This document shows, piece by piece, positions 209-50,564 of a stretch of DNA of 50,564 nucleotides (positions within the stretch are counted from its first letter, which is position 1; the number at the start of each line of letters is the position of its first letter). A program made the position numbers and the translations under genes. The DNA is from Shigella phage vB_SsoS-ISF002, in the sequence record MF093736, one strand, 5' to 3'. A model generated the notes under the pieces. The model worked only from the letters and a program-made list of their open reading frames with translations. It was not told the origin of the DNA and ran no database searches.

Positions 209-616
209 ATGCTTCTTCTTTTAGATCTGTTCAGGTTCTGCGAAGGTTACGACAAATACACTCGACAGCACATAGCGAAATTTATATACGCCCACAAGGA
301 AAGTGAGCGATTTGCTAAGGCCGCCGGAATGACTCGCCGTGAATTTACAAGCGCGCTATCTAAGGAGTTTTGCGCACGCTGCGTGACTGAGGGTTATCTT
401 GATTGCAAGGGTGGATTTTACTGGTGCAAGGGAAAGATCAAGCGCCCGGTAATGATGAAGCTGATGTGTATTGATGGCTACAACAATCGGTATACGTGGG
501 AAATGATGCACATTGGAGAGATGAGTGATGAAGATTTGTTTGGCGAACGTAGAAACATTGATAGATCGGAACGTCGAATTGTGCGCAAGGCTCCAGCTTA
601 CGAAAGAAGAATTTGA
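209..616 (+). CDS. hypothetical protein (135 aa)
   Basis: ATG-initiated ORF in the rightward arm; no recognisable motif. Confidence 0.4.
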   Translation: MLLLLDLFRFCEGYDKYTRQHIAKFIYAHKESERFAKAAGMTRREFTSALSKEFCARCVTEGYLDCKGGFYWCKGKIKRPVMMKLMCIDGYNNRYTWEMMHIGEMSDEDLFGERRNIDRSERRIVRKAPAYERRI

Positions 617-5498: not shown

Positions 5499-5517
5499 TT
5501 TTAACAAAAAGTGCTAT
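5499..5517 (-). promoter_or_regulatory. conserved intergenic box
   Basis: Plus strand ttttaacaaaaagtgctat; contains the VRR-NUC stop (TAG); about 55 nt upstream of the Dam start. Confidence 0.5.
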
Positions 5518-8038: not shown

Positions 8039-8491
8039 ATGAGTATTCAACGTATCGCAGAGTCAACTGGTGAAATCGATAAACGTCACATCAATGGTAA
8101 CAACGGAACACGACGCGGTAAAGATAAAAAGCCTCGACAGCGCTGCGGCTTCTATATTCATAAAGAAGAAACACGCGCCGGATTGCGAGCGCGACTTGAT
8201 GCGCTTATCGAATATTATGGTGGCCCTGCGGCCTGCGCAAAAGCTCTAAAGGTTAGCAATCAGACGGTGCAAGGCTGGAAAGAACGCAACATGATTTCGT
8301 GGCAAGGTGCTGAAGCTGCGCATCGTGCTTACCGACGACAGGGGTGTAAAGGGTTTCGTGCCGCATGGTTGCGATTCGACCTGAAGTTTGACGGTAACGG
8401 CAAGTGCCTTGAGAAGCGATGCAAGAACAAGAAATTTATGCGCGTCGTGAAGAAGGAAGATATCGGGACGACCAATAGCATTTTTAGTTAA
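8039..8491 (+). CDS. helix-turn-helix DNA-binding protein (candidate transcription regulator)
   Basis: Cro/CI-type HTH-like segment AKALKVSNQTVQGWKE; basic N-terminus; RBS taggaga. Confidence 0.5.
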   Translation: MSIQRIAESTGEIDKRHINGNNGTRRGKDKKPRQRCGFYIHKEETRAGLRARLDALIEYYGGPAACAKALKVSNQTVQGWKERNMISWQGAEAAHRAYRRQGCKGFRAAWLRFDLKFDGNGKCLEKRCKNKKFMRVVKKEDIGTTNSIFS

Positions 8492-13676: not shown

Positions 13677-14203
13677 TGCGTTTATCTCCTTCGTTTACGA
13701 TGAATCCATTATAGCCATTAACGGCGTTTAGTCAATCGAATACATGTAATTGGTGTGTAATAGCGTGTCTATATCGCTCAAGTTACAACCAGCATTAACG
13801 GAATCAATTGCTTAAGTCTATTTTTATGTGATGTCTACTGTGTAATACTTGTAACCGCTTTTTCTTAGAAATACAGAGATAGCTACAAGTAGAATCCATA
13901 TTGATTAAATTTTGAACATATATGATAGAAATTTGACGAATCAATCAAATCACCAGTTACACGATAGACAACTGTTACACAACAATAATTATATATATAA
14001 AGCTAAAATTAAATATTATCTATCTATATATATTATATAGAGTTTTTATCATATCCCTCTGCTGTCGGGTGGGGTGGATTTTGTAACACCCGCTCCGGTT
14101 ACAAAAATAGACACCCGTTACACGAAAAAAACTGTAATCGTGCTATTGCAATAAAAGTAAATGCGACATACAATGCAATCACACTAACGACGAGGACATA
14201 CAA
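13677..14203. promoter_or_regulatory. AT-rich divergent intergenic control region
   Basis: 527 bp non-coding; atatata tracts; GTTACAC repeats; palindrome TTGTAAC-N10-GTTACAA at about 14080..14103; TAGACAACTGTTA element shared with the 44.9-kb region. Confidence 0.5.
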
Positions 14204-15421: not shown

Positions 15422-18400
15422 TTACCAGACACCAACAACCACTCGGCCCCCGTTAGGTAGGTTAACCGTGATCCCGTTATTGTTTATCTGAACCGTGTTA
15501 TTTGTTCCGTTAAATGCAAACGATCCGTTATCCGCATACAGAGCACCCCTTACGGTAGCATTCATGAAGTACGCAGCACCATTCTTGTTAATATGCCACC
15601 CTTGATTTCCATCCCAATTGTTAGACTGAATAGCGTTACCAATCATTGCGTTAGTAATAAATCCATCCTTGATGATCGCGCTACTTAGAATAACCTGACC
15701 ATTCTCAACAACGAATGGATACTGAGTCTGACCGTTCATGCCAGTCATGATTGCAAATCGAGATGCCTCAAAAAGAATCTGAGCCTTAACAGCCGCACCA
15801 GAACCAATCAGAGACATAGCCATACCTGCGCTGTATTCCTGACCATTATACTTAAGGCCCAGCTTGACGCCGTACATTGCACCAGTCGAATCGGCGTTAC
15901 TCCACGAGTCAAGTTTTTGAGAAAGTGCTGCCTCGTTATTCCCAAGTCGCGCGCTTAACGTTAAGTCAGCTTGCGTTCTCGCCTCAGTCTCGTTCGCGAT
16001 GGCTTCACGGATATCGGTCAAACTTGCCTGAATATCATCACCAATCTCTGCCTTGAGTTGGTCAATCTCACGAGATAGCGCCCCTGTCTCAGTTGCGATA
16101 ACTTCACGCAATTCACTATTGCTTGCGCTAATCTGATCGCCAAAACTTGCTTTCAATTGCTCGATCGCCGTCACTCGTGCCTGCGTCTCATCAGCAATAA
16201 GTTTCAGTGATTTCGTGTACTCAGCCTTTCGTTTTCCGTTCTCCTTCTTCATATAGATCGCGTCTTTGTCATTAGCTAACGCGTTCTCAATTGACGCTTC
16301 CGCGTTCGCTGCGTTCTGCGCCGCGTTGCCTGTTGCGTTATCAACAAGCCACTTGTAGCCAGGCGAGTTTTCTATATCGACAGAAATCTCTCCGATGATA
16401 TCGTCAACGTTTGTTGATGCCATACCTCTGACAAAATCAGTCCACTGAGACACATTACCGATCCTGTCAACCGTCCTTACCCGATACCACACAATATTCC
16501 CGCCCGGCATCGGTGAATGATAATACTCATGCTGCGGATACGGGATCAGAGAGAGTAAACTCGCATTGTCAACCGTTCCATCCGGTGACTGTTGCAACTC
16601 TGTATAGGCCGTATCTCCAGAACCATCAGAGAACCCCCATTTTGTACGGATACCAAAAACAACATCATCAGTAGCCGTAAGGTTAATCGGTCTGCCCGGC
16701 TCACCTTGTTTGCCAGTCAGCGTCGCAGCTACGATATTTGACCATCCTGAAGTCGTACCGGAACCAGCTACGGAGCGAACGCGAACCTGATAGTTGCCAG
16801 CGTAAATACCCTCAACGTAAACCTCTTTGTTTGCTGTCTGCGGAACGTTTTGCCAGTTGCCGTTATCCTTTCTCCACTGTACGTCATAGAAAACTGCGTA
16901 CGGCACTTTATCCCAGCTAACAATCATCGTTTCTACGCTCATCCCCTGGACGATTCTCGACTCTGAGGACACTTGCACGTTTTCCGGTCTAGGGATCTGA
17001 TCTGGTTCAACGATGCTCGTCGGTCGGTCGTCGATGTTAACTCCGTAATCAATCTCGTCGTACTTGTTAGGATCGTACTCCACCGCCGTGATTTTGTAGG
17101 TAAATTCCTCGTCATCATCGCCCTTATCGATTTTTGTCACGACGTACTGTTGTAGCGCAATGTCGGTGCGGTCGATAGCGAATACCGTGTTAGGCTTCAC
17201 AGGAAAGCCAAAGCCAATGTTAACCTCTATAGTCTTACCATCCGCACTAACACTTGAGATTGTGCGCTTCACGGGCTTGCCGTCGGGCTTATTTACGATA
17301 ATAAAGTCACCTGCGCGCGCATCCACACGGAACGGCAAGAAAATCTGGCTTCCAGACACTTCAAGCAAGCGCCCTGATAGGTTCATAGTCAAGTTGCTTG
17401 ACCAGAAGTTGTCGGCTATTGCCACAACATCACCTATTGTCGGGATCATACCTTCAAGCCCGGTAGCGAAGTTTACCGTAGTGCTGCGGAGGTTAGTTTT
17501 CAGAATCCATCTCCCGCGTCGGTTTGCCTCACTTCGACGTGTGCAGCCGATCGCTGTAATGCTCGTTACGTTGTTCCCGAACCGTAGAGTAGCCTCACGA
17601 TCGAATACTGGCTCAACGTCCTGCTGATACATGTTTTGCTCGTCATCAAACATCACATTACACGTCGTGTACATACTCTTTTCGCTTGCGAACGTGTAGG
17701 AGAAGTCACCATTAACAACGTTGTCGTTAGTGAAGATGTACGCAGGTTCACGCGGCCTGTCGATGATTACCGAAATGCTTTCGCCATTCCAAAAGCTCAT
17801 ACCTCGAAAGATTGAGCAAATATCTCGAATAACCTTGTAAGCGTCAGTCTGAGACTGGATTATCACGTCGCAAAGGTATCGAGGCTCCGTCCCTCCCTTC
17901 CCATCAGGAACCATCTGATCGCAATATTGCGCGGCCTCGTAGAGCGCCCATTTATCGACGGAGATCCCAAGCTCCTTCTGATCCAGTCCGTAGCGCTGAT
18001 TAATCATCAGGTCGTATAGAACCCATGCCGGGTTGTTAGTCCAAGCCTTCTTGAAAGTCCCATCCCAATTTCCGTTGTAGGTTCGAGACTCAGGGTCGTA
18101 ATTAGATGGAACGTTAATAATCTTCCAGCGCTTACGAATTGAGATCGTAGGCAGCTGGTTTGGGAACATTTTCGAATCAAACTCGACAAAAAGAAGACCA
18201 GTCAGAGGATAACGGAATTTGGCATCAATCACCTCGGCATAGCTTTTCACCTGAATTGCATCAACGACATTCGAGTCACTTGAGTCAGGAGTCTTTCGAA
18301 CAACTCTGAATATTACCTGGTTGTTGAAGTTCGGCAGGTTTACGCGACGGCTTCGATCATAACCCGACATTGTTTTGCCTTCGATTACATCAGTAAGAAC

Positions 18401-43939: not shown

Positions 43940-44515
43940 TTACAGTCCGCACTTTTCAATATGCGCTTTCATCTGGCGAACCAGGTCGCGCACGGCACTT
44001 ACAGTTATGTCGCCTTTCTCAATGTCATCAATATCAGGAACAAACGAGTCAAGGCAGTCAGCCAGGCTAACTTTTTTCCGGCTGCGGCGCTTCTTCACCG
44101 GAACCTCTTCGTCACTCACGGAAATAGTAACGACTCGCAACTTCTCATCGTTCATGGTCACGCTCACCTTGACCGACTTGCCGATTTTGGAGAAGTGTCG
44201 CGATACGATCGGGGTGATGAATGAGGATTTAAACTTCTCGTTAATCTCTTCGGTCTTCCCAAGCAACCAGGACCCGGCGCACTCGACAACATCATAATCG
44301 TCGGCGTCTGGCATTGACTTCCTCACAGCGGCCTCAGCCATCTGAGTAGCGTCGAATGTGAACTCAGTATTCTCGCCATCACCATAAAGCTGATCGCAAG
44401 CGGCCCGGATAACATCAGTCACCTTAGCCTCCTGGCGCTGCTCAACCGTTACCCCTGCCTTCTCGTAAGCTGCCTGTATTGCTGCCTGAACCGCATCTGA
44501 TTGGTAAGAACTCAT
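43940..44515 (-). CDS. hypothetical protein, first gene of the leftward arm (191 aa from RBS-supported ATG)
   Basis: Strong RBS aaggagaaacct before ATG (MSSYQSDAV...). Confidence 0.45.
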   Translation of the reverse strand: MSSYQSDAVQAAIQAAYEKAGVTVEQRQEAKVTDVIRAACDQLYGDGENTEFTFDATQMAEAAVRKSMPDADDYDVVECAGSWLLGKTEEINEKFKSSFITPIVSRHFSKIGKSVKVSVTMNDEKLRVVTISVSDEEVPVKKRRSRKKVSLADCLDSFVPDIDDIEKGDITVSAVRDLVRQMKAHIEKCGL

Positions 44516-44605
44516 AGGTTTCTCCTTAGTTTCAATATACACAATGATTAACGCGTAACAGCGCGTCTCTAATTGCAGTGTTACACGACGACCCGCCTGC
44601 GTCAA

Positions 44606-45217
44606 GGCTTGCAGGTCGATTTTAAGTGTGGTTAATCGTGTTAATCGTGTTAATCGCTTTCCCCATATAAATATGAGCCGATAAAACTACTGTATATATA
44701 AACATGAATACAATAATCAGAGCATCCAACGATTAACATAGTAGACACGCTATACAACCATATTACAGATAATAGTATCTATATATATAAATAAAAAAAA
44801 TACTTATATATTATATATATACATATAGATATATGTATATTATAAGGCGTAATTTGGTGTAATTTTGTCTACTATTGAGATTCAGGCAAATTGTAGACAA
44901 CTGTTAACACACGGTCAAGTGTAACCGTAATCGATAGCACGTTTTGCTAAAAATGGAGATAACCACCAGGCGAACCGGGTAACACCAGATCCTCCCTCTC
45001 ACAATCATTGCATTCTAAGCAACAAATAAACCAACTGTTGCACACCGTGCAATAATCACGTTTCATCATTCGTAATCAATAACAATCAAGGTTATTACAC
45101 CTATTCCAGTATTGATGGAATAATGAGCAATTATTGGAATAGCATTTTTTGCTAACGACTCGGTCGGGTAGGTCGGGTATAGTCCGGCCCATAAACCAAT
45201 CAGAAGAGGAAGCAACA
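44606..45217. promoter_or_regulatory. AT-rich divergent control region between the two arms (candidate origin, packaging or early-promoter hub)
   Basis: 612 bp non-coding; tatatata tracts; 3 tandem GTTAATCGT 9-mers at 44631..44657; boxes at 44934 and 45138; CAACTGTT elements at 44897 and 45034. Confidence 0.5.
44631..44657. repeat. three tandem 9-bp repeats (gttaatcgt, gttaatcgt, gttaatcgc)
   Basis: Direct reading. Confidence 0.9.
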
Positions 45218-48706: not shown

Positions 48707-49123
48707 ATGAAATCCATCAAACTGAAATGCACTTACGCAGATAAAATCACAGGATTTGAAGTAAACAACCTATACAAGGGTCGTGAGCGCTATGATGGCA
48801 CTCGCGAAGTAAAATTAAAATGCGGCAAGTATTTAAAACTTGAAAAGCATGATGAATTACAGATTCACGGATCTGATGAAATCTTCTTCGCGAAGTTCAC
48901 TGAGTTGAAAACAAAGACGCTCAAGTGTACCGGGCTTGACCATCGCAACCCAATGAAAAAATCATTCAAAGTTGGCAAGCGTTACCAGGTTGAAAGCGGT
49001 CGCGCTCTCGGTGGCGTAGCTGGTTACATCTTTGATGAAGATGGTTGTCGCTGGACCTTATTTCGCGAAGAGGTTGGTTTTAGTATCGCAGACGGCACAA
49101 CCTTTGAGGCCAAATACTTATAA
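48707..49123 (+). CDS. hypothetical protein (138 aa)
   Basis: RBS within the accaatcaggag leader. Confidence 0.45.
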   Translation: MKSIKLKCTYADKITGFEVNNLYKGRERYDGTREVKLKCGKYLKLEKHDELQIHGSDEIFFAKFTELKTKTLKCTGLDHRNPMKKSFKVGKRYQVESGRALGGVAGYIFDEDGCRWTLFREEVGFSIADGTTFEAKYL

Positions 49124-49199: not shown

Positions 49200-50564
49200 A
49201 TGTTTAATATTAAGCCAAAACTGAATTACCAACAGATTATTGAGATCGCCAATAGCACTGGAGTTAATCCGGTGGCGATCGCAATTCGTGAAAACAGCTA
49301 TGGTGACTCAGTTTCATTTTGGCAAGATCCGATCGATATCAATAGCGGCAACGATAAGTTCCCTCTGATTTCGTTAGGTGGCGATAACCTGGTATTCGAA
49401 TATGCAAAAGCAAAGGCCGAGTCTGTACAGTTCCCTGTTTCGTCTGCGTACGCTCATTTCATTGGGTGCATCTCAGCCGCGATGCTCGGGAAGTTTTGGG
49501 TGCAATATCACGGAGAAGAGCAACCTACCGCTCTTTACATGGTAATCAGCCAGCCACCTTCAACAGGTAAATCTGCGATTAACTCCGCAGCGATTACGCC
49601 TATGCGCGCAGAGATTCAGCGACTGAATGAAGAGCGAAAAAAGGAACGTATCCGTTTAACCAGTCAGCTACGTCAGGTCGAGAAGGAAATTAAAAACGAC
49701 CCGAAGGGTAACACGACGGCGGCGCTGTACGAGGACAAAGAAAAACTGGAAGAAAAGATCAAGAAGATGGCTGATATTGTTTTCGCGGTATCAGATCCTA
49801 CACCTGAAGGTCTTGCGAAGGTGGCGGCTGTTCAAGGTCACTTCTCAGTAATCTCTGATGAGGCGACAGCAATCAATACATTGCTCGGACTGACTTATGG
49901 CGGTTCTGATAAGAAATCAAACAGCGAACTTATCCTTAAGGCGTGGGATAAAAACCATATGGAGGTCGCGCGTTCAAACCAAGACAACAACTTATCTCTT
50001 TGCCCGGTCGGTTCGATCTGCGTCATTGCGCAGGATGAAACAATCAAGGGTATCATGGACGCAGGCCAGAGAGGCATCGGCGTATCTGAGCGTTTCCTTT
50101 TAGTTCGTGAGGAACCGCTTTTAGGTACTCGTATTCTTTGTGATGAAAATGGTGATGCGCTGTATAAGGAAGTCGATCGAGGATTGGTGAGTAAATATTA
50201 TCGACTCGTACACAACATCATGAAAGAGGATAACGTTGTTTTATCTGTAAGCCGTAATGCTATGCGTGAATTAAACCTTGCGCGTCAGGCGATGGAACCG
50301 GATTTCGCCGCAGGTGGGAAATACTCTCACTCAATGCTACGCGGTCATCTCGGCAAGTTCGATAAGCACGCCTTGCGTATTGCTTCAGTTCTCCACACGA
50401 TAAAGAATTGGGAGGGTGAATCACCGAACCGTTCCAACCGTGAGATTGACCTTGAAACAATGCAGGAAGCAATCATGATCTTTAATGAGCTTTCCAGGAC
50501 TTATCTGTCGTCTGCCAGCGCTGCCGGGTATGCTGGTGATGATGCTGAATCTCGTAAGCTGATT
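49200..50564 (+). CDS. 5' part of a large P-loop-containing protein; the ORF runs off the window end in-frame
   Basis: ATG at 49200 with RBS aaggag; Walker A-like VISQPPSTGKSAI; no stop before base 50564; the last full codon ends exactly at the window end. Confidence 0.5.
   Translation, partial: MFNIKPKLNYQQIIEIANSTGVNPVAIAIRENSYGDSVSFWQDPIDINSGNDKFPLISLGGDNLVFEYAKAKAESVQFPVSSAYAHFIGCISAAMLGKFWVQYHGEEQPTALYMVISQPPSTGKSAINSAAITPMRAEIQRLNEERKKERIRLTSQLRQVEKEIKNDPKGNTTAALYEDKEKLEEKIKKMADIVFAVSDPTPEGLAKVAAVQGHFSVISDEATAINTLLGLTYGGSDKKSNSELILKAWDKNHMEVARSNQDNNLSLCPVGSICVIAQDETIKGIMDAGQRGIGVSERFLLVREEPLLGTRILCDENGDALYKEVDRGLVSKYYRLVHNIMKEDNVVLSVSRNAMRELNLARQAMEPDFAAGGKYSHSMLRGHLGKFDKHALRIASVLHTIKNWEGESPNRSNREIDLETMQEAIMIFNELSRTYLSSASAAGYAGDDAESRKLI

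Follow-up and report, generated by a model that had tools for sequence, protein, structure and literature searches.

Candidate paired origin-like modules with clade-specific word arrays in the two largest gaps of the T1-like Shigella phage vB_SsoS-ISF002

Which function is served by the two largest non-coding gaps of Shigella phage vB_SsoS-ISF002, and what do these two gaps have in common? The window that is analysed here is the whole of sequence record MF093736 (50,564 nt), a complete, circularly permuted genome of a Tunavirus (Drexlerviridae, T1-like), which we regard as whole because the DUF3987 helicase gene leaves its right end and resumes at its left (49200-50564, continuing at 1-204). 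The first gap, which we refer to as “region 1”, is located at 13677-14203, between the exonuclease VIII gene (recE-like, minus strand) and the Cor-like lipoprotein gene (plus strand); the second gap, “region 2”, is located between the DUF7174 gene (minus strand) and the methylase gene (plus strand). An initial annotation, made from the letters alone, had described them as the two largest gaps of the genome, each dividing divergent genes and each containing alternating-AT tracts, and this description is confirmed; the 612 bp that it gave to region 2 (44606-45217) should probably be extended to 702 bp (44516-45217), because relatives annotate the ATG of the DUF7174 gene at 44515, with a ribosome-binding site, and not a TTG at 44605. 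The two gaps together make up 2.4% of the genome.

We have found that both regions carry arrays of the same short words next to an AT-rich palindromic core, in the form of two paralogous modules, and we put the probability at roughly 0.45 that these are paired origin-like modules which also touch the early promoters and whose ligand is a clade-specific phage protein, probably the Cro-like helix-turn-helix (HTH) protein encoded beside the primase gene. T1 belongs to the seven classical T phages, yet the origin of its replication is still unmapped; recent studies of T1-like phages report that none could be found (PMC11447400, PMC7718038), the study of phage TLS found no iterons (PMC11447400), and in the literature that we searched there was no description of the sites that are presented here.

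Shared sites and AT-rich cores of the two gaps

The exact 13-mer that the initial annotation had noticed, TAGACAACTGTTA, occurs at 13965-13977 and 44894-44906 and nowhere else in the window, with the extended forms TAGACAACTGTTACAC (13965-13980) and TAGACAACTGTTAACAC (44894-44910). Taken alone it is weak evidence, because, owing to TA tracts, a shared exact word of 13 nt or more also arises in 36 of 500 block shuffles that preserve composition; in T1, moreover, its TAGACA becomes TATACA, and the exact 13-mer has been rejected as a meaningful unit on both grounds. What is kept among relatives is a less strict pattern. An unbiased search for k-mers that are enriched in the two gaps has returned (TA)n, TTACAC (9 of 20 genome copies), GTTACA (9 of 28), TAGACA (7 of 16) and TAATCG, and these words are joined in a composite, bipartite site, TA[G/T]AC[A/G]-N2-4-[G/A]TTA(A)CA[C/G], usually as TAGACA-N3-GTTACAC. 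The composite site occurs five times in the window, exclusively in the gaps (13755 and 44857 on the minus strand; 13965, 14108 and 44894 on the plus strand), against an expectation of 0.23 copies in shuffled genomes and a maximum of 3 in 300 shuffles, and it is likewise restricted to the gaps in T1, Sfin-1, EF3-1 and LeonhardEuler. The words are found in direct and inverted orientation, often phased at about 9 bp, with inverted pairs only at long range. The GTTACAC repeats that had been noticed in region 1 are located at 13956, 13974 and 14117, and all five genome copies of this word fall within the two gaps.

The sites and cores are listed below. Statements on relatives are based on an alignment of phages with the regions, T1 and LeonhardEuler among them; at region 2, phages are of two types, type I (this window) and type II (e.g. 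Sfin-1). The nucleotide diversity (π) has been calculated over 14 distinct T1-group sequences, with the third codon positions of recE as the neutral proxy.

13755-13771, minus strand: composite site TAGACACGCTATTACAC, the left-hand inverted copy, conserved in T1, Sfin-1, EF3-1 and LeonhardEuler
13832-13846, minus strand: word pair ATTACAC-AG-TAGACA
13956-13980, plus strand: three 9-bp-phased words, GTTACAC-GA-TAGACA-ACT-GTTACAC, holding the shared 13-mer; π 0.03
13985-14050, unstranded: AT-rich core 1, 90% AT, an imperfect palindrome with arms 13990-14010 and 14012-14032; second least stable duplex, z 5.5
14081-14104, unstranded: palindrome TTGTAAC-N10-GTTACAA, two inverted GTTACA words; arms invariant and spacer variable among relatives
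14108-14123, plus strand: composite site TAGACACCCGTTACAC
44580-44586, plus strand: isolated GTTACAC upstream of the first leftward gene
44742-44768, plus strand: word array TAGACA-CGC-TATACA-ACC-ATATTACAG, paralogue of 13956-13980
44770-44850, unstranded: AT-rich core 2, up to 93% AT, an imperfect palindrome with arms 44776-44802 and 44805-44831; least stable duplex, z 6.1; kept in both phage types
44857-44871, minus strand: composite site TAGACAAAATTACAC, forming a divergent pair with 44894-44910
44894-44910, plus strand: composite site TAGACAACTGTTAACAC

The palindrome of region 1 had been reported at 14080-14103; it exists, but is located at 14081-14104. A third copy of the shared element had also been proposed, at 45034-45047: the sequence in question, CAACTGTTGCACAC, is actually located at 45032-45045 and falls outside the family, since it is without the TAGACA and GTTACAC words, and T1 and type II phages have CAACAGTT at this position. 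The spacer of the divergent pair 44857/44894 is 22 bp in this window and about 10 bp (about one helical turn) shorter in type II, where the left arm is degenerate.

The two regions are related beyond their individual sites. In the best local alignment of one gap with the other, 13959-14041 is matched with 44745-44829, co-linearly over about 85 bp, with the array followed by the AT core; its score of 65 compares with 30.7±4.5 in shuffles and is reached in 0 of 300. The cores are also the two extremes of duplex instability in the genome (z 6.1 and 5.5), the next segment being at z 3.3, and inverted words are located on either side of both AT palindromes; in region 2, ATAGTAGACA and TGTCTACTAT are symmetric about the palindrome centre. 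Two properties of iteron origins are thus found here, namely clustered, replicon-specific short sites and an adjacent AT-rich element suited to unwinding.

The diversity of region 1 is distributed in blocks: π is 0.203 at the third codon positions of recE, 0.061 over the whole gap, 0.02-0.03 over the word array region (13901-13984) and 0.002 over the AT core (13985-14050), while variable islands, at 13791-13840 (0.14) and 14051-14078 (0.17), divide the conserved blocks. These values indicate strong purifying selection on the array and the core.

It is against these data that an absence of specific function is to be judged, i.e. that the gaps share a chance similarity or a relic duplication in AT-rich, low-complexity spacer. 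The exact 13-mer is matched or exceeded in the shuffles, as stated above, and AT-rich tracts inflate the sharing of words; but the composite motif occurs five times where 0.23 copies are expected, in gaps only and in five genomes, π is 0.002-0.03 against 0.20 at the neutral proxy, and the two-locus paralogy recurs with other words in TLS and Webervirus, as well as in 11 of 17 diverse contigs (see the next section). A chance origin is excluded by the conservation data, and we consider a gap pair devoid of function hardly credible.

Two side observations concern the variable islands of region 1. Between AT core 1 and the GTTACA palindrome, at 14057-14084, a GC-rich hairpin is followed by TTTTGT in a terminator-like arrangement (π 0.17), which could end a short transcript across the AT core. 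In the left half of the gap, the sole match to the consensus of the integration host factor (IHF) in the two gaps has been found:

13802-13814, plus strand: IHF-consensus match AATCAATTGCTTA (AATCAA-TTGC-TTA)

The consensus positions of this match are invariant in six phages, while its 4-nt spacer varies, as would be expected if the IHF site were real.

The same design across the family

The words TTACAC and TAGACA are concentrated in the T1 group; other clades have different words in the same architecture. We have surveyed 45 viral-contig loci around recE homologues, with protein identities down to 42%: an AT-rich core is present in all 45, and in 43 of them it is located about 260-310 bp upstream of recE. 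The clade-specific words are best seen in two groups, TLS (whose words are TGTTCC/TGTTCAC in short form) and Webervirus:

TLS (Tempevirinae): word TGTTC[C/A]-N-TGTTC[A/C], four copies per genome, two of them inverted around the AT core upstream of recE and two in the genome-end gap
Webervirus mtp29 (a Klebsiella phage): word GGTAAGAT, whose 8 copies all fall within the two equivalent gaps; their AT cores form a pair of paralogues, 50 bp long and nearly identical

For the other clades, the exact 7-mer cross-locus test is too strict outside Webervirus and has been replaced by an alignment scan, in which the region-2 position is defined as 4.8-6.6 kb upstream of the gp10 homologue. Over 17 contig pairs from diverse clades, the gap upstream of recE has its best match at the region-2 position in 11 (z 8-53); the failures include loci that are cut at record ends (TLS, 80% group) and off-position matches in Rtp-like phages.

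The two loci thus carry paralogous modules that evolve in concert within a clade and differ between clades, and this pattern points to a phage-encoded, sequence-specific ligand rather than a host factor. That the arrays are functional protein-binding arrays is supported by their restriction to two loci, their conservation and the clade-specific words that take their place elsewhere. The initial annotation had left its candidates at “operator, origin or packaging-initiation sites”: protein binding is the part of this proposal that is supported, origin and operator are both plausible, and the evidence for packaging concerns region 2 only, outside the shared sites.

The proteins that could bind the arrays have been sought among the products of the phage itself, and two of them are encoded next to replication genes:

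8039-8491, plus strand: candidate binder, a 150-aa Cro-like HTH protein (T1 gp23 family), beside the primase gene
209-616, plus strand: 135-aa protein of the T1 gp10 family, the alternative candidate, encoded immediately after the DUF3987 helicase gene

The 8039-8491 product is similar to Pfam P22_Cro, below threshold, and to PDB entry 1rzs (E 0.005). It is conserved family-wide, with a recognition helix that varies by clade at the base-contact positions: SNQTVQGWK in T1, NLKTVWGWK in TLS, SIQVVQQWR in Webervirus, T[P/R]QAVEEWF in Rtp-like phages, and others elsewhere. Each variant of the helix accompanies a different type of word, a correspondence that is suggestive and is confounded by phylogeny. 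Further candidates are the C-terminal domain of the DUF3987 helicase and the small terminase, TerS (GP3_package family); a PDB sequence search with the gp10-like and DUF3987 proteins has given no informative match. A member of the DUF3987 family has been shown to be a 5'-3' helicase (PMC11724360), and in the T1 record the annotation of the primase notes a similarity to P4-type alpha primases.

Origin, transcription switch or packaging signal

The preferred reading, of paired origin-like modules, can be put as a sequence of steps. A phage-encoded, clade-specific protein, most likely the 8039-8491 HTH protein (with the 209-616 protein or the C-terminal domain of the DUF3987 helicase as alternatives), would coat the word arrays that flank the AT palindrome on either side, and help to open it; the opened palindrome would then let the replisome load, i.e. 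the DUF3987 helicase, the Zn-ribbon primase and host polymerase III (Pol III), which we take, from the T1 literature, to have a role in the replication of this phage. The two modules would be two replication origins, or one origin and a cis enhancer. The same binding would also modulate early divergent transcription, because some of the sites overlap outward sigma70-type promoters or sit 55-75 bp upstream of them.

An origin role is favoured because the arrays are iteron-like, the minima of duplex stability fall on the AT cores, the gaps are without DnaA boxes and no origin has been described. The DnaA box TTWTNCACA has 0 matches in both gaps and a single one in the entire window. The GATC site occurs 251 times genome-wide and once in the two gaps (13677-14203 and 44516-45217), where about 6 copies are expected, so that the modules do not form clusters of Dam sites as oriC does. 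Cumulative GC skew, which had been proposed as an origin test, follows gene orientation and cannot discriminate between the readings, and no Rfam covariance model has a match in the window at gathering score.

Two-locus architectures of this sort are known from other replicons, and the likeness is one of layout. Bacillus phage SPP1 has two origins, oriL and oriR, bound by the replisome organiser G38P, with oriL located inside gene 38; like the present phage, it is a pac-type siphovirus (about 44-50 kb) with the same repeated initiator boxes, here putative, at two distant loci by AT-rich DNA. It differs in that there is no sequence or protein homology, and in that the present modules, known from sequence alone, are intergenic and palindromic, one of them being at the gap of the pac site and the early promoters. 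In herpes simplex virus (HSV), oriS and oriL have an AT-rich palindromic core between inverted sites for the origin-binding protein, are located between divergent genes and are present in more than one paralogous copy per genome, all of which has its parallel here; HSV is, of course, a eukaryotic virus and its binder UL9 is a superfamily 2 (SF2) helicase, hence a likeness of architecture only. Satellite phage P4 has two cis regions, ori and crr, with common short iterons, tentatively TGTTCACC, to which the alpha primase-helicase binds; a resemblance to this tentative iteron is seen in the TLS-clade word TGTTCAC, and the T1-group words differ from it. In P4, one polypeptide combines primase, helicase and origin binding, whereas here the primase, the DUF3987 helicase and the HTH proteins are separate.

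The second reading to be weighed is that the arrays are operator sets of an early-transcription switch, comparable to OL/OR of phage lambda: the clade-specific words would be the operators of the Cro-like HTH protein, the outward sigma70-type promoters would be repressed or activated, and the AT cores would be UP-element/promoter DNA or bending regions. The promoters concerned are the following:

13708-13735, minus strand: sigma70-like promoter TTGACT-16-TATAAT of the exonuclease VIII/Erf/SSB operon; best genome match, 11/12, an annotated promoter in phage SA32RD and present in all relatives
14146-14174, plus strand: sigma70-like promoter TTGCAA-17-TACAAT of the Cor-like lipoprotein gene, invariant in six phages
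44890-44918, minus strand: sigma70-like promoter TTGACC-17-TACAAT, whose spacer and -10 overlap composite site 44894-44910

Consensus sigma70 promoters are rare in this genome, and both gaps of the T1 group are divergent promoter regions that contain the few. The leftward promoter 44918->44890 overlaps a composite site with its spacer and -10, and its equivalents are promoter-like in T1 (TTGATT-17-TATGAT) and in type II (TTGTCA-17-TAGAAT), as read from the alignment; 13755 (minus) and 14108 (plus) are similarly placed to each other, at about -55 to -75, in matching orientation, upstream of the outward promoters of region 1. Two loci with specificity-linked sites for a Cro-type HTH protein, overlapping early divergent promoters, are the pattern of lambda, and the candidate protein has a P22-Cro-like HTH. 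The form of the sites is nevertheless different: instead of dyad-symmetric operators of 14-17 bp, which in lambda are 17-bp dyads, three per locus and all on promoters, the sites are bipartite, non-palindromic and in direct 9-bp phasing, around an AT palindrome, and such arrays, with up to 10 words per locus in Webervirus, appear more iteron-like than operator-like. Core promoter elements are overlapped by only one of the five composite sites (44894-44910), the other four being upstream of promoters or far from them, and neither of the invariant AT cores contains an acceptable sigma70 promoter: scans, together with a relaxed inspection by eye for -10 and -35 elements, have given only TATACA-18-TATAAT (44839->44810). 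The main promoter family of the phage, moreover, uses a different and universal box (see the last section).

The arrangement in Webervirus bears on the choice between these two readings. There, the region-1 module is located inside the replication/recombination block, between the co-directional primase and recE genes, with about 10 copies of the word over 400 bp around the AT core at one locus; half of them come immediately behind the stop codon of the primase gene, a place where a promoter would not be expected, and this favours an origin role, because half of the sites are without a divergent promoter to control. A transcription switch as the whole function of the arrays seems to us possible, though on the unlikely side. 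In the T1 group, region 1 is located beside recE/erf/ssb and about 5 kb from the primase gene.

One variant, in which TAGACA would itself be the -35 element of rightward promoters, is inconsistent with the alignments: the spacer that leads from the site at 14108 to TGTAAT ranges between 16 and 19 bp in the relatives, with the length of an A-run, and region 2 has no -10 at the proper distance.

The third reading is that the arrays are recognised by the terminase (pac): they would be sites of the small terminase that flank an AT-rich cleavage zone; the functional pac would be region 2, and region 1 would be a second copy or a cryptic one. Region 2 does have a connection with packaging, since position 1 of the T1 record, where its annotated 2800-bp terminal repeat starts, corresponds to 45053, inside region 2; two features of its right part are concerned:

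45037-45053, unstranded: palindrome GTTGCA-N5-TGCAAC, overlapping the proposed third copy (45032-45045); the T1 record start maps to its edge
45072-45155, plus strand: block with three TGGAATA words (45102 minus, 45116 plus, 45135 plus), with DNA-level conservation in about 180 Klebsiella Webervirus genomes

Short-word arrays on both sides of a central zone are also known from the pac sites of P1 and SPP1. In T1-like phages, pac has been placed in this untranslated region (PMC7718038), and in TLS it has been mapped, via restriction analysis, to the equivalent gap (PMC11447400). The T1 terminus, though, is located 140-200 bp to the right of the shared sites, outside the shared module and in a separate conserved block that is also kept in Webervirus; this block (45072-45155), just past the left terminus of T1, may be part of the true pac recognition region. 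Nothing comparable to the start of the T1 terminal repeat has been found in region 1, which is tied to recE and primase and not to packaging genes. Region 2 is, in other words, composite, and the evidence for pac concerns its right part, not the shared module. A pac site is, in addition, unique per genome, and classical T1 work describes a single one, whereas the module is present twice; P22-gp3-type TerS proteins usually recognise a pac site inside their own gene. We regard recognition of the arrays by the terminase as improbable.

The record of the Webervirus mtp29 (49078-49114, 1-14) was opened inside the AT core of region 2, which would speak for pac; the record of Roth61 was opened in the same core, 33 bp apart. 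Such starts have been rejected as evidence of physical ends in the AT core: that of Roth61 was placed manually, by analogy to T1 (PMC12629751), that of Sweeny is arbitrary, and a literature search gave no basis for that of mtp29, whose opening may reflect a physical end or else a break in the assembly at the duplicated 50-mer.

Returning to the reading of paired origin-like modules, several points weigh against it as well. The near-perfect invariance of the AT core (π 0.002) is its main unexplained point, since simple unwinding needs only AT-richness. Replication initiation has no experimental mapping in any T1-like phage; site 44894-44910 lies on a predicted -10/spacer, and 13755 and 14108 are located some 55-75 bp upstream of outward promoters; the favoured candidate among the binders, with its Cro-type HTH, is annotated as a transcriptional regulator; and packaging proteins could be the ligands in region 2, which is the pac/left-terminus region of T1. 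Phylogeny confounds the match of helix and word, since divergence between clades affects every protein; about 5 kb separate region 1 of the T1 group from the primase and helicase genes; and the change from TAGACA to TATACA in T1 is without a matching change in the candidate proteins.

There is also a more far-reaching proposal: the AT palindromes might be read sequence-specifically, perhaps as extruded cruciforms, the duplicated module being a shared hub that couples replication initiation, an early-promoter switch and terminase entry, with region 2 serving both as origin and as pac, and region 1 providing a second origin or a cryptic pac, kept by concerted evolution across Drexlerviridae. We mention it as a long shot.

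Two precise candidates of about 150 bp each, with the words to be mutated and a shortlist of binders, make the origin and pac questions testable. The design, with its clade-specific words, spans Drexlerviridae, including the Klebsiella weberviruses that are used in phage therapy, and it bears on minimal replicons, on the engineering of these phages, on the reading of genome ends and pac sites, and on the co-evolution of a binder with its sites at two loci.

Type-specific repeats and the 21-nt promoter family

Region 2 also contains repeats that are separate from the composite sites. Three tandem 9-mers had been reported at 44631-44657; they are present, as two exact copies and an imperfect third, and an inverted copy had been overlooked:

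44631-44657, plus strand: tandem 9-mers GTTAATCGT, GTTAATCGT and GTTAATCGC, type I-specific; type II has TGTCTAG twice there
44729-44737, minus strand: inverted copy of GTTAATCGT; type II has CTAGACA instead, exchanged in concert with the tandem 9-mers

The left part of region 2 (44516-44760; Sfin-1 locus 15704-15960) accordingly exists in two types, with either three copies of GTTAATCG and an inverted copy 80 bp off, or two copies of TGTCTAG and the inverted CTAGACA. The GTTAATCG 9-mers are a separate, type-specific element that is exchanged along with the DUF7174 allele (53% identity between types); the GTTAATCG and TGTCTAG repeats may be operators of the DUF7174 product, or the association may reflect linkage within a mosaic segment. 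In TLS, the genome-end gap (49789-49822) contains a palindrome, TAGACC-GATT-GGTCTA, twice in tandem, adjoining the first leftward gene, at a position that is analogous to that of the type-specific 9-mers of the T1 group.

The other repeated element is the 21-nt intergenic repeat aaATAGCACnnnTTGnTAAAA, taken from the TLS paper, which leaves its function an open question (PMC11447400). In this window, the box (consensus ATAGCACnnnTTGnTAAAA) has 28 copies at no more than 3 mismatches, two of them inside region 2 (44934 and 45139); examples are located at 725, 45139, 45906 and 46992 on the plus strand and at 5499, 37366, 38661, 40536, 41823 and 43583 on the minus strand. The possibility that the element shared by the two gaps is a copy of this repeat has been rejected, the 13-mer and the composite site being different from it in consensus and in genomic distribution: the 21-nt box is universal across clades and located in front of genes, and the words of the composite site are not universal.

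The box is followed by a -10-like hexamer, typically TATAGT, in 22 of the 28 copies, exactly 22 nt past TTGnTA in 19 and with a TGn extension in 11; a perfect inverted repeat, at least 5 bp long and specific to each copy, holds the hexamer in its loop in 11 copies, against rates at random positions of 13% for the hexamer and 1.8% for the inverted repeat. The sequence of the flanking stem differs from copy to copy, yet always pairs. The whole intergenic unit is about 75 nt long and consists of the box, 22 nt, TATAGT, a conserved CATCGA(A/C)AACGA, the ribosome-binding site and the ATG. Judged by these features, the units look like a phage promoter family of about 25 members, in which the -10 is presented in a hairpin loop. 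The two copies of region 2 are different from each other:

44934-44952, plus strand: orphan 21-nt box ATAGCACGTTTTGCTAAAA, without a downstream -10 or hairpin, kept in six of six phages, with one substitution each in LeonhardEuler and T1
45139-45183, plus strand: 21-nt box ATAGCATTTTTTGCTAACG with -10-like TATAGT (45178-45183), the likely promoter of the rightward methylase operon

Lastly, both gaps are 99% identical to those of Shigella phage vB_SflS-ISF001, and the linearisation point of the present record is located inside the DUF3987 helicase gene, as it is in the ISF001 record; lists of open reading frames miss that gene.

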